Source: an archaeon (lineage in GTDB: Archaea > Asgardarchaeota > Thorarchaeia > Thorarchaeales > Thorarchaeaceae). Taken from it: a DNA stretch of 32,000 nucleotides. The stretch is from assembly GCA_024275415.1 (NCBI GenBank), contig JAJRZD010000005.1:30295-62294 (forward strand), given 5' to 3'. Numbering within the stretch: the stretch's first letter is position 1; each line of letters starts with the position of its first letter. The position numbers were made by a program, and so were the translations under genes. The notes under the pieces are model-generated. The model was not told the DNA's origin and did no database searches. It worked only from the letters and a program-made list of their open reading frames with translations. Positions 10,095 through 14,252 of the stretch are shown here, one piece after another.

Positions 10095-11363
10095 ATGCCG
10101 ATCACAGACTTTCCAGTAGTGCTTCAGATCAAAGACCCGCTGCATGGTTATATTGGTGTTTCAGAGATTGAGAAGAAGATCATTGACCTGCGACTAACAC
10201 AAAGGCTCCGAAATATCCGTTCTCCTGCAGGAACACATCTTGTATTCCCTGGTGTTGACACCTCGGTGATGGGACGAATGTTTGGTGTCATGTACGTGAC
10301 TGAGGTCTTTGTGGAGCATCTTGACGGCTCGCTTGAGGAAGTGGAGAAAGCTCGGCTTGCATCAATGATGTTCATCTTGTCATTTGGCCCTTGGTCTAAT
10401 GTGATGGAGGAATACCTGACCACGCGAGGTGATGACAGACGGCGGATGGCAACTCTCATTGCAGAAATAGGTCCTGTTGCCGACATCCTCAATGATAGCA
10501 GTTATTCTGTTACAGAGATAAAGAACCTTATCACAAAAGGAGTACCGATAAAGGGAATCAGAGTAGACCTTCTTACCACCCCTATCAATCCCGAGCTGGT
10601 CGACAACCTCGAACGCGATGCCTATTTTGCAGGCGTTGAATACGCGCAACTTGAGTTCCGTCGCCTCTTCGATGCGACAAGGATCGCAAAGAACAAGATG
10701 GCATTCCAGAGGGGCGCAATGTACACTCTGGACTCGTACTTGAGCGCTAGTGGTAACATGTTTGATGCGGTGTATTATCACAAGACTGCCCGTGCTGCAG
10801 AATTGATGTTGTTGAGGATGCTAGATGAGGCTGGCTCCAATTTCATCCCATTCCCCGGAAATGACCTAGAGGGTTTCATGTTTTGTGATGACCTGACATC
10901 ACACGACATCCTACTCTCGGTACAACCAGAAGACCCGGAGAACATGCGGACTGCCCAACGTCTATTCATCGACTACAGAAAACGAAACCTGATAAAGCTT
11001 GCAAGTGCTAGGACTATCGCAAATGAGGAGTTCTTAGCGGGATTGAAGACAGCAGACGGGCTATTCTCTGTGGAGAACGAGATAGCAGAGATGGCGGGCA
11101 TAGACCCTCAGAACGTCTTCATTGACTACCCTGACCGTCTTTCTGTCGCGTACTATCCGGGCAGGCATAACATGGACGATTTGGTGTTTTATGAACGTGG
11201 GTCGGGAGGATACGAGTTCTGGCCAGTTGATGATCTAAGCGAGATGGCCCGCGCATTCAAACGAAAACTGAAGACCATCAGAGTCTATACGACTCGTGGA
11301 TATCGCAGCAAGGTTCGGAAAGTTGCGGACGAGTTTCTAAAGAATGTTGATGAGCCCATGTAG
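10095..11363 (+). CDS. HD-superfamily dNTP-triphosphohydrolase-like (SAMHD1-type) protein with degenerate active site
   Basis: Scaffold motifs IKDPLHGYI, QRLR.I, LVFPG, GPWS, LERDAYF.GV and VYYHKTARAAELML are present, but the His-Asp dyad reads FI (LASMMFILSFGPWSN). Confidence 0.85.
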   Translation: MPITDFPVVLQIKDPLHGYIGVSEIEKKIIDLRLTQRLRNIRSPAGTHLVFPGVDTSVMGRMFGVMYVTEVFVEHLDGSLEEVEKARLASMMFILSFGPWSNVMEEYLTTRGDDRRRMATLIAEIGPVADILNDSSYSVTEIKNLITKGVPIKGIRVDLLTTPINPELVDNLERDAYFAGVEYAQLEFRRLFDATRIAKNKMAFQRGAMYTLDSYLSASGNMFDAVYYHKTARAAELMLLRMLDEAGSNFIPFPGNDLEGFMFCDDLTSHDILLSVQPEDPENMRTAQRLFIDYRKRNLIKLASARTIANEEFLAGLKTADGLFSVENEIAEMAGIDPQNVFIDYPDRLSVAYYPGRHNMDDLVFYERGSGGYEFWPVDDLSEMARAFKRKLKTIRVYTTRGYRSKVRKVADEFLKNVDEPM

Positions 11364-11432
11364 ACACATTGATTTCTCAGAGCCACAGAGTCTTTAAGCA
11401 ATGTTTTGTTACCTCGAAGTGAGGTAAGTGCG

Positions 11433-11888
11433 TTGGGAATTGATTCAACAGTTGGACAGATTCAGAGAGACCCGAATTTCGGGATGATTCTTATTGGTGC
11501 ATTGCTATGGCTTGCAGGGTTATATCCTATACCTCTCGTGGCACCATTCCTCTTGACAATTGGCTTTGGCGTTGTTTGTACATCAGCCGCCATTACATCC
11601 TTGCAGCGCCCTACCGAGAATGCAGCCTTTGGATTGCTCCTCGGAGGTATTATTCAGGTCATAGGATACTATCTTCTTTACATCCCCCTTATCGGATGGC
11701 TCATCGCTCCGTTTCCCATAGTCCTTGGGAGTGTTCTCATCATCTATTTCGCTATCCCCTTGGCGATTAAGACAGGGAAAGTCCCGTTCGTCGAGGAGAT
11801 ACAAAAGAAGATACGAAAAGATAAGGATGGAATCGAGCCTGTTTCTGATTCAGAAGATACATCCGACCAAGACAATCCTAGTTCGTGA
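11433..11888 (+). CDS. Small integral membrane protein (about 4 TM), unknown function
   Basis: Four hydrophobic segments and a charged C-tail. The TTG at 11433 has GAGGT 7 nt upstream; the ORF track starts at 11406. Confidence 0.75.
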   Translation: MGIDSTVGQIQRDPNFGMILIGALLWLAGLYPIPLVAPFLLTIGFGVVCTSAAITSLQRPTENAAFGLLLGGIIQVIGYYLLYIPLIGWLIAPFPIVLGSVLIIYFAIPLAIKTGKVPFVEEIQKKIRKDKDGIEPVSDSEDTSDQDNPSS

Positions 11889-11975
11889 TCCGTTCGACCA
11901 CCTCATACCCACATTCGCCGAACTTTCATAAGGCTCCTATCATACTCACTGGTGTAAATCAATAGGTGATGATCA

Positions 11976-14252
11976 TTGTTCTCTTGTGGCAAATGTGGGC
12001 TCCCCCTGTTCATCCGTTCAGCATCTCTAAAAGATATGATCCTCAATCTGGATGTGCAGTGTCTGCAGGGACACAAGGGTGTACGCCGAATTGCAGAGCA
12101 CCAAGTGGAGGAAGTTGCCCAAGAGATCTTTCGACGGCTCTACACTTGCATCGATTGTGGGTCTAACATGATGATGGTGGGAACTGAAACGCACAAGGGG
12201 TCGACCGAGGGGCTTTTCATCTGTCCAAACCATGGAGCGGAACGGAGAGAGTTCCCTGCACAATTCCTCGGTCATGTCACTCTTGCTGGCTCAGAGGTCA
12301 ACCCTAACACTTCCATCCGAAACTCGTTCAGATGTGATGAGTGCGGTCTAATCTATTCCATCACGGACATCCAAGAGAAAGGAGGCATTCTTGAAGCATC
12401 CGTCAAGTGCGCGAATGGACACAAGGACACGAAATACCTAGCGCCTCACATGGATGAAGGGCTATTGAAATCAATATTGCAACGCATCGCCCACTGCGAC
12501 AGATGTGGACTCCCAGGACACCTTTCTGGAGTCGAAGAGCGCAAGAGAAACAGTCGGTTGCATGTGGTCTGCCCCACTCATGGTGTGACAAAGAAACAGG
12601 TTCCAACCGAGTTCATTGGGAAGATACAGGAATCTGTTGCTGAGATACCTGAAGATGCAGTGATCAGGGCCATGCTGACCTCTTCCAAATGTGAGCGACC
12701 ACTGGTGATACGCGAGATCGAGGAGGCACCAAATGGTTACAAGTTCAAGACCCTCTGTCCAGGCCATGGCAATACAGGTGATTTCGTGACACCTGTGGAC
12801 TGGAGGGAACGGAATCGCAGGCTCATCACACAGTCCACATTGTCATGCAACGAGTGTGGCTTGCAGACCCAGATACTGGACGCTCGCAAGAAAAAGAAAG
12901 GGACTCAGTTCAGAGTAGTCTGTCCTACTCACGGAGTTATGTTAAGGAATGCACCACACGATGTGTACAGCATCATTGAGGAAACCTCTCATCATCTCGA
13001 CAAGCTTCCGTCGCTGATACGGAGTTTGACCTGTGAGAAATGTGGCATCCCGTTGAGCCTCCGTGATGTCGAAACGAAGCGAGGGATTGTCGAATTCGAC
13101 ATGGACTGTCGAAATGGGCATAAGACAAAGCGTTTTCTTGCCCCTGATATCAATCAGGCCACACTTGTCGGACTCTACAAGAATCTCTACAAATGTCCTG
13201 AATGTTATGATCCTGTAGATCTGGTCTATACAAAACCCGAAGGACGTGAAACCCGAGTGGTGCTTCTCTGTCCTCTTCACGGGAAGCAGGTATTGGATGT
13301 CCCGGATGATCACGCTGAAGCAATGCAGCTTGCCTATGATGAGATAAAGGCGGATCGCCTGAAGCCGCGGATAGAAGCCGTTCATGAGGAACCAGAAGCG
13401 GAGTTAGAGTCATCATCGGAATCTTTGGAGTCCTCATCCAAGGAAGTGCATATAGCACGAGGCTGTGAAGTGGTTGGTGGGAAGTTCGATTTCAAGGTGA
13501 AAGTGACCAACACTACTGGTTTTGTTATCACGAACGTGACAGTGAGTATCGTTGCCTATCCACAGGACTGCATGGAACTGGGTGGTGAGAGTTCCAAGAC
13601 AATCTCGAGGATTGAAGTAGGCGGATTTCGCAGTCCGCTTTTCACATTCTATCCCACTAAAGATTGCGTCCAGGGGAAGGTAGTTGCTACCGTTTCCTAT
13701 ATCGATTTCAGAGATCAGCTTCATACGTTGCAGGTCGAACCTTATCTGATACGCTCTGTCTGTGACCTGTTGAAACCGACCAAAGCCACCTCTCAACAGT
13801 TCGACCTCATCCTTGGAAACCTGACCAAGGCTGGTGAGGAACAGATACTAGAGTGGAACCCTCGGATACTCTTCACCAAGGCCGAGAAGCTGCTTCCCGT
13901 AAAGAATTTCCATATTATCGATACGGACGAGAAGGTTCTCTCTGGTCACTTTATTGGAACCATTCGTGGGTTCGCTGAGGGGAAATACACAGGCAAGAAG
14001 GTTGCGGTCATATTCCTCATCTCTGGCCCCGAGAACGGACGTACAGCCACAGTCAAGATGGAGGCACTGGGTGAGGACATCGCGATGCTTCCGACAACCA
14101 TTGACGAACTCTCAGAAACAATTGACTCGTGGATTTGCCTGCGATGTGGAGCCCCGTTGGATCCGGAGCAGGTCGAGGATCTAGGATTGCGAAAACCAAT
14201 CCGGTGCAAGTATTGTTCTCATACTCTGACTTTGGGATTATATCTCATGTGA
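11976..14252 (+). CDS. Multi-zinc-ribbon repeat protein (eight CxxC...Cxx(G)H units) with a C-terminal beta-sandwich/alpha-beta module and a terminal C4 zinc ribbon
   Basis: 758-aa ORF with a strong AGGTGAT RBS 5 nt before the TTG. Repeat units are visible in the translation, and CLRCG...CKYCS lies at the C-terminus. Confidence 0.88.
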   Translation: MFSCGKCGLPLFIRSASLKDMILNLDVQCLQGHKGVRRIAEHQVEEVAQEIFRRLYTCIDCGSNMMMVGTETHKGSTEGLFICPNHGAERREFPAQFLGHVTLAGSEVNPNTSIRNSFRCDECGLIYSITDIQEKGGILEASVKCANGHKDTKYLAPHMDEGLLKSILQRIAHCDRCGLPGHLSGVEERKRNSRLHVVCPTHGVTKKQVPTEFIGKIQESVAEIPEDAVIRAMLTSSKCERPLVIREIEEAPNGYKFKTLCPGHGNTGDFVTPVDWRERNRRLITQSTLSCNECGLQTQILDARKKKKGTQFRVVCPTHGVMLRNAPHDVYSIIEETSHHLDKLPSLIRSLTCEKCGIPLSLRDVETKRGIVEFDMDCRNGHKTKRFLAPDINQATLVGLYKNLYKCPECYDPVDLVYTKPEGRETRVVLLCPLHGKQVLDVPDDHAEAMQLAYDEIKADRLKPRIEAVHEEPEAELESSSESLESSSKEVHIARGCEVVGGKFDFKVKVTNTTGFVITNVTVSIVAYPQDCMELGGESSKTISRIEVGGFRSPLFTFYPTKDCVQGKVVATVSYIDFRDQLHTLQVEPYLIRSVCDLLKPTKATSQQFDLILGNLTKAGEEQILEWNPRILFTKAEKLLPVKNFHIIDTDEKVLSGHFIGTIRGFAEGKYTGKKVAVIFLISGPENGRTATVKMEALGEDIAMLPTTIDELSETIDSWICLRCGAPLDPEQVEDLGLRKPIRCKYCSHTLTLGLYLM

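Follow-up and report, generated by a model that had tools for sequence, protein, structure and literature searches.

A 758-residue protein encoded in a thorarchaeal genome ends in a module that is confidently predicted to be one unit with the two-subdomain fold of the adaptin/COPI appendage, or ear. Its gene is a single open reading frame (ORF) at positions 11976–14252 of the forward strand of the window, by which we mean the whole stretch of DNA analysed (32,000 nucleotides, or 32 kb; contig JAJRZD010000005.1, positions 30,295 to 62,294). Four A/B pairs of Cys3-His (C3H) zinc ribbons would form the protein's rod-shaped trunk, and a flexible acidic hinge of ~40 residues leads from there to the ear, which a C4 ribbon would cap. 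A preliminary description of this DNA, made from the letters and their translations, had proposed a scaffold linking a poly-zinc rod to a coat-adaptor-type ear. Our model and fold matches support that layout, while the scaffolding role is something we infer.

Our analysis points to a cytoplasmic protein-docking adaptor as the most likely role of this protein. We lean, by a modest degree, towards a soluble cytoplasmic trunk-hinge-ear protein of Thorarchaeota in which the ear would act as a shared docking platform and the ribbon rod as a multivalent binder. The evidence for this reading, and the alternatives to it, are considered below.

The C-terminal module and its resemblance to coat appendages

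AlphaFold2, run on the 268-residue module (residues 491–758) with an 82-sequence family alignment, returned a model with a predicted local distance difference test score (pLDDT) of 95.4 and a predicted template modelling (pTM) score of 0.80. In this model a nine-strand sandwich (module residues 1–105) is followed by an alpha/beta platform (106–228) and a zinc ribbon (229–268), which bears out the order of elements that had been read after the linker. In a Foldseek search of the PDB, the 16 best chains were all AP-2 alpha, AP-2 beta2 or COPI, mostly as isolated appendage domains, with E-values down to 4e-9. The best match by VIA-align was COPI chain 9qpq_H (residues 726–953; Z 17.8, 220 residues aligned, root-mean-square deviation 3.4), probably beta-COP judging by its numbering. 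Next came the AP-2 alpha-adaptin ears (Z 15.7–16.2, 207 residues), the AP-2 beta2 ear (Z 13.6–15.0), gamma-COP (Z 13.3) and BBS9 (Z 12.0). An independent search of 48,161 representative chains left the order of matches unchanged, and a eukaryotic alpha-adaptin ear cluster in the ESM Atlas matched the module with template modelling (TM) scores of 0.64/0.71.

The appendages of AP-2 alpha/beta2, COPI beta/gamma and BBS9 were the only structures to align with both subdomains (188–220 residues, Z 12–17.8). Matches to the sandwich alone stopped at Z ≤ 12.8 over ~105 residues, so the module is not the generic CARDB/Ig fold without a platform that the preliminary description had weighed against its appendage assignment. 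The ears of AP-2 alpha/beta2 and of COPI beta/gamma-COP (PDB 1w80, 1b9k, 1e42, 1r4x, 1pzd and 9qpq chain H) share with the thorarchaeal module a sandwich-then-platform unit of 203–220 residues (Z 13–17.8) and likewise close a long protein at its C-terminus, behind a flexible and poorly conserved hinge. They differ in their trunk, which is a HEAT solenoid, whereas the thorarchaeal trunk is a zinc-ribbon array with no Adaptin_N or HEAT match, and they lack the extra C4 zinc ribbon that packs after the platform in the thorarchaeal module. The ears of BBSome subunits BBS9, BBS2 and BBS7 (GAE plus platform after a beta-propeller; PDB 6vbu, 6xt9) align over both sandwich and platform (186–188 residues, Z 10.6–12) and are less similar to the module than those of AP-2 and COPI. 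With an ear placed behind a variable N-terminal repeat domain, these subunits resemble in layout those members of the archaeal family, described below, that join a propeller to an ear. In the BBSome, a ciliary complex absent from archaea, the ears hold subunits together in fixed pairs.

Outside the ribbon, the ear has four conserved cysteines: C497 (13464–13466), C532 (13569–13571), C564 (13665–13667) and C596 (13761–13763). The last two each sit beside a conserved Asp and are kept in at least 90% of the 82-sequence family alignment. The cysteines may form a metal site or simply be buried. Other conserved positions include N154-F155 and G179-K180-Y181, in module numbering. A co-fold of two copies of the ear and ribbon module scored 0.01 against a mark of 0.42, a result that says nothing on self-association.

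The resemblance to coat appendages could instead be convergent, a sandwich on a helix-grip domain having arisen independently for a role such as self-assembly or small-ligand binding (START/Bet v 1-like), with the rod as a spacer. Sequence identity to eukaryotic ears is only 7–14%, and the platform taken alone matches not only the beta4-adaptin platform (Z 13.3) but also KA1, AMPK C-terminal and Bet v 1/cyclase domains at Z 9–10. The existence of a tandem two-ear paralog could point to ear-ear pairing, and the conservation of C564 and C596 may count on the same side. We nonetheless regard convergence as unlikely, because only the appendages of AP-2, COPI and BBS9 align over both subdomains, at Z values well above those of the single-domain matches. 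The C-terminal position behind a hinge also mirrors adaptins, and related Loki and Hel proteins reach the Pfam model Alpha_adaptinC2 according to Eme 2023 (PMC10307638).

The zinc-ribbon trunk and the hinge

The trunk consists of eight units of ~55–62 residues, and each pairs a CxxC knuckle (residues 4, 58, 120, 174, 236, 291, 353 and 407, the one at 236 being degenerate) with a C-x2/3-H knuckle (residues 29, 83, 145, 199, 261, 316, 378 and 432). The spacer between knuckles is 21 residues in all eight units, in keeping with the two-knuckle pattern of zinc ribbons (CxxC plus C-x2/3-H or CxxC, ~20 residues apart, with conserved ligands). Type A (CxxGH; units 1, 3 and 7) and type B (CPxHG; units 2, 4, 6 and 8) alternate strictly except at unit 5, and unit spacing alternates between 54 and 62 residues, giving four A/B super-repeats of ~116 residues. 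These are 21–31% identical in pairwise comparison, with BLAST scores of 40–73 bits, which agrees with the earlier suggestion that a two-finger unit had been duplicated.

Unit 5 occupies an A position but is degenerate: its first Cys is lost (S/A/T/D) in 86/86 orthologs, and its His is usually T/K/S/N. In these 86 orthologs, every ligand of the seven remaining units and of the terminal C4 ribbon is invariant or close to it. The eight tandem C3H ribbons of the preliminary description are therefore present at the positions given for them, but only seven are intact; unit 5 is the degenerate one, and a single C4 ribbon completes the count. Seven of the eight array units are accordingly predicted to hold zinc. 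A 35%-identical ortholog (P0147) keeps unit 5 intact, with other units degenerate, which points to an ancestor in which all eight ribbons worked.

With a profile of the A/B pair, stand-alone proteins of 150–190 residues that carry it were recovered from other Asgard families (in 19/19 genomes of one family). Since single-pair proteins occur there, the A/B pair appears to be an Asgard-wide unit that was amplified fourfold in the 758-residue protein, the two-finger unit being older than the eightfold array. Examples of ~150 residues lie at L006 1530–1991 (−) and L007 1428–1886 (+), and in one stand-alone protein a C4 ribbon is added. In several other Thorarchaeal genera, a tandem paralog of 618–668 residues directly follows the gene (L008 3853–5721 (+), after the ortholog at L008 1448–3721). 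Its eight A/B ribbons are followed by just the end of the platform and a C4 ribbon (hhalign probability 96% to module positions 168–262). This paralog is absent from the window, where a flavoprotein gene directly follows the 758-residue gene.

The hinge (residues 451–490) is the least conserved stretch of the protein, with a mean column identity of 0.56 versus 0.83–0.90 in the C-terminal module (86 orthologs). Its isoelectric point (pI) is 4.5, with 12 Asp plus Glu versus 5 Lys plus Arg, and it matches the acidic linker noted earlier.

Searched against Pfam, NCBIfam and PDB sequences, the 758-residue protein gave sub-threshold zinc-knuckle matches and no family, in line with the preliminary description, which had recognised no named family. 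The Pfam matches to named zinc-ribbon families (Trm112p, Zn_ribbon_recom, Zn_Ribbon_TF and Elf1) were all sub-threshold, and Atlas feature searches with the zinc-ribbon half scored ≤ 0.81, at noise level.

Ribbons of this general kind bind DNA or RNA in TFIIB, TFIIS, RpoP and Elf1, and the protein might be a nucleic-acid-binding factor with the ear as a regulatory or dimerising appendix. Joint Genome Institute (JGI) pipelines label orthologs as RpoP, Elf1 or topoisomerase Zn-ribbon, the matches to Zn_Ribbon_TF, Elf1 and Zn_ribbon_recom point the same way, and a conserved Lys/Arg stands just past the second knuckle of each unit. All of the Pfam matches, however, score below the curated thresholds and stem from the knuckle motifs alone. 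The charge of the array is close to neutral (60 Lys plus Arg versus 57 Asp plus Glu), which would make the trunk unsuited to nucleic acid, and searching the PDB with an A/B unit profile gave no significant match (best E 0.026, a spurious C2H2 match). The conserved neighbourhood is without transcription or RNA genes, and the other fusion partners of the ear are protein- or glycan-binding repeats, not nucleic-acid domains. A nucleic-acid role for the array thus seems improbable.

Gene model

The TTG codon at 11976 is likely the true start of the ORF. A Shine-Dalgarno-like AGGTGA precedes it, and an in-frame TGA lies upstream at 11970–11972. The database gene model (P0002, 738 residues) begins at Met21, which makes it 20 codons short (window 11976–12035) and costs it the first CxxC knuckle. 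That knuckle is kept in 44/44 orthologs whose models reach the N-terminus, which argues that the TTG start is correct and that P0002 is too short. The ORF and start first proposed for this gene were borne out by these features. No transmembrane helix is predicted in the 758-residue protein, and its nine Cys-rich zinc sites, together with this lack of membrane segments, point to a cytoplasmic location.

Distribution of the protein and of the ear family

The 758-residue protein has ~195 homologues. Those with names come nearly all from Thorarchaeota metagenome bins, are 52–75% identical and mostly 741–758 residues long, and the last 268 residues are length-invariant among orthologs. We surveyed 151 genomes of the phylum in six frames with profiles of the kind that the preliminary description had proposed for the repeat unit. 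The zinc-ribbon array was present in 18/26 genomes of the window's family and in the sole genome of a sister family, while the A/B pair extended to other Asgard families. The invariance of the zinc ligands across 86 orthologs at 52–75% identity, and the retention of the gene in these genomes, point to purifying selection. The ear and ribbon module turned up in 25/26 genomes of the window's family, and five other Asgard families had it too; it was not found at E ≤ 1e-10 in the 21 remaining families sampled.

A search with the module profile against 1.84 billion representatives (50% identity clusters) returned 606 clusters at E ≤ 1e-3 and 160 at E ≤ 1e-30, a large Thor/Loki family. Among 136 family representatives (P0122–P0269), a transmembrane helix is predicted upstream of the module in 103 (at a median of 61 residues before it) and is lacking in 33; the module stands at the very C-terminus in 104 and includes the C4 ribbon in 89. 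N-terminal parts comprise beta-propellers, beta-helix, PKD/Ig, TSP3, LRR and TPR, mostly as ectodomains of membrane proteins. Soluble N-terminal parts (LRR, TPR, WD40, short HEAT-like and zinc-ribbon) are less frequent. From these sequence features the module appears to serve chiefly as an inner tail in membrane or surface proteins, with the 758-residue protein as a soluble member. In 51 relatives, 102 Pfam families were matched, and the adaptin-ear family PF02883 was not among the 25 commonest.

Just one more strong ear occurs in the window's genome, in a 958-residue protein (L011 2500–5376, which is G000 contig C38, ~68500–71376). This protein starts with a polytopic membrane N-terminus and coiled coils; its ear, which has no ribbon, is followed by another coiled coil and a membrane anchor at the C-terminus. 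A Thorarchaeal paralog family of 675–805 residues (P0112–P0121, e.g., L004 7001–9352) joins a helical N-terminal part to two tandem ear and ribbon modules; no copy of this two-ear paralog was found in the window's genome (92.9% complete). Other Thorarchaeal proteins, of ~405–420 residues (L012 1152–2366 (−); L013 1116–2378 (+)), consist of a short helical N-terminal part, a Pro/Ser-rich linker and an ear without ribbon, a layout that recalls a miniature adaptin. The helical part matches HEAT_2 in 80% of the corresponding Atlas cluster, and only at E 0.012 in the one copy scanned.

Relation to published archaeal ears

Stand-alone Alpha_adaptinC2 and B2-adapt-app_C domains have been reported in Asgard archaea, where ear-like domains, among them ear and C4-ribbon proteins of Loki- and Helarchaeales, are counted as eukaryotic signature proteins (Eme 2023, PMC10307638). 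The supplementary table of that study has 33 PF02883 entries, which come from Loki-, Hel- and Sifarchaeia; none is from Thorarchaeia. Several entries are Lokiarchaeal proteins of ~330 residues in which the ear is followed directly by a CxxC...CxxC ribbon, as in the thorarchaeal module, and a 329-residue Promethearchaeota cluster is among the module's nearest Atlas neighbours. In the Helarchaeal entries, which are membrane proteins, the ear forms the inner tail. Published and thorarchaeal ears have a similar opening strand motif. The published proteins were detected by PF02883, whereas the 758-residue protein has no match to this family, and no ribbon array is present among the table's sequences as printed there, some of them only in part (PMC10307638).

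IG plus TBP appendage regions, one of them with a Zn ribbon, have also been described, both for archaeal ESCRT loci and for multidomain proteins of Asgard archaea, and Zn-ribbon proteins have been placed in Asgard ESCRT-I/II (Makarova 2024). The ESCRT-locus proteins (arCOG15284, Meth_adaptin and Halo_adaptin) resemble ours in carrying an IG-like and TBP-like appendage in an archaeal protein; the Methanosalsum example also has a Zn ribbon, and one protein is joined to its partner domain via a membrane helix. They differ in being euryarchaeal, in having no poly-ribbon trunk and in being defined by a Vps4/ESCRT-III neighbourhood, which is lacking at the thorarchaeal gene. A 2026 structural-clustering preprint does not mention the zinc-rod-hinge-ear architecture. 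The ear of Asgard archaea, with or without its C4 ribbon, is thus already known (Eme 2023; Makarova 2024), and the novelty claimed for this protein in the preliminary description holds for the zinc-rod-hinge-ear layout, a variant that is undescribed in the literature searched.

A putative docking adaptor

Our preferred reading of the protein as a docking adaptor draws on an analogy. Eukaryotic ears are interaction hubs of vesicle coats and recruit partners through short motifs. The thorarchaeal ear may similarly dock one common cytoplasmic partner or short peptide motif, and in the soluble member the zinc-ribbon rod would be the variable, multivalent binding part. The 758-residue protein could then bridge, or compete at, the sites where the inner tails of surface proteins dock.

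Several observations weigh against this interpretation. The docking partner, its motif and the binding itself are what we infer from the analogy. None of the Pfam ear models (Alpha_adaptinC2, Alpha_adaptin_C, B2-adapt-app_C and COP-gamma platform) matched the whole protein at E ≤ 1, and the module sequence profile retrieved no ear or appendage chain from PDB sequences at E ≤ 10; with no sequence-level link found, the case for common descent with eukaryotic ears rests on fold and domain order. The gene has no informative operon, as what a distant ortholog shares is limited to general synteny (DUF2299, CN-hydrolase ... gene ... flavoprotein), and the two Snf7-family (ESCRT-III) genes of the genome lie on other contigs (C28 and C20).

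The location of the Snf7 genes bears equally on a further alternative, in which the protein would be an ESCRT-linked cargo receptor, a functional analogue of ESCRT-0 whose ribbons bind ubiquitin-like tags or ESCRT subunits and whose ear links to the ESCRT machinery. Such a link has been proposed for archaeal appendage proteins, and the published appendage-like proteins in ESCRT loci and Zn-ribbon proteins in ESCRT-I/II are consistent with it (Makarova 2024), as is the presence of two Snf7-family genes in this genome. Against it, no ESCRT gene emerged when the window's larger ORFs were scanned with Pfam, none stands beside the orthologs, and a Pfam scan found no Vps28-C, steadiness box or longin domain in the 758-residue protein. 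An ESCRT-0-like role therefore strikes us as distinctly unlikely.

Features and genomic neighbourhood

The features of the gene and its immediate upstream neighbours are collected in Table 1. Neighbouring genes encode pyruvate:ferredoxin oxidoreductase subunits, a flavoprotein, DUF2070, PadR and ABC transporters, alongside the HD-associated protein and the 160-residue membrane protein of the table. The HD-associated gene stands beside the gene in L001 as well but is absent beside the distant 35%-identical ortholog in L002, and we rejected it as a functional partner for that reason. An ortholog of the 160-residue membrane protein occupies the equivalent position in L008 (848–1348); no gene is called there in L001.

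Table 1 Coordinates of the 758-residue protein's gene, its parts and upstream neighbours in the window.
Feature	Position	Strand	Remarks
422-residue HD-associated protein	10095–11363	+	Matches PF19276 only; no HD domain model
160-residue protein, ~four membrane helices, acidic tail	11406–11888	+	87 nucleotides upstream, same strand; no family match
AGGTGA, Shine-Dalgarno-like site	11964–11969	+	6 nucleotides before TTG start; read from sequence
Super-repeat 1: unit 1 (type A, CGKC...CLQGH, residues 1–55) and unit 2 (type B, CIDC...CPNHG, residues 56–117)	11976–12326	+	Ligands invariant in orthologs including N-terminus
Super-repeat 2: unit 3 (A, CDEC...CANGH, residues 118–171) and unit 4 (B, CDRC...CPTHG, residues 172–233)	12327–12674	+	Motif positions, repeat alignment, ortholog conservation
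Super-repeat 3: unit 5 (degenerate, SSKC...CPGHG, residues 234–288) and unit 6 (B, CNEC...CPTHG, residues 289–350)	12675–13025	+	Motif positions, repeat alignment, ortholog conservation
Super-repeat 4: unit 7 (A, CEKC...CRNGH, residues 351–404) and unit 8 (B, CPEC...CPLHG, residues 405–450)	13026–13325	+	Best conserved pair, mean column identity 0.80–0.83
Acidic/Ser-rich hinge (residues 451–490)	13326–13445	+	Lowest conservation in protein; pI 4.5
Ear subdomain 1, predicted Ig-like beta-sandwich (residues 491–595)	13446–13760	+	AlphaFold2 pLDDT 95.4, nine strands; fold matches
Ear subdomain 2, predicted alpha/beta platform, TBP/helix-grip-like (residues 596–718)	13761–14129	+	AlphaFold2; aligns jointly with sandwich to AP-2 and COPI appendages
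C-terminal C4 zinc ribbon (CLRC...CKYC, residues 719–758) and stop codon	14130–14252	+	Four Cys invariant in 86 orthologs; pLDDT 92–97

Implications for Asgard archaea

The origin of eukaryotic vesicle coats is an open question in eukaryogenesis. Our data describe a confidently ear-shaped module that is common in Thor- and Lokiarchaeia, where it forms the constant C-terminal part behind variable binding domains. It is conceivable, though in our view unlikely, that the adaptin/COPI appendage had its forerunner in the archaeal ear and ribbon module, and that this module acts as a general docking hub in the cytoplasm, tying many different Thor/Loki surface receptors and soluble repeat proteins, the zinc-ribbon rod among them, to one partner. 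If true, this would place a primitive cargo-adaptor network in Asgard archaea, predating eukaryotic coats. The soluble zinc-ribbon member, being small, well conserved and free of membrane segments, offers a practical bait for finding ligands of archaeal ears, and the ear's partner, once found, would turn the fold resemblance into a testable statement on pre-eukaryotic trafficking or signalling.

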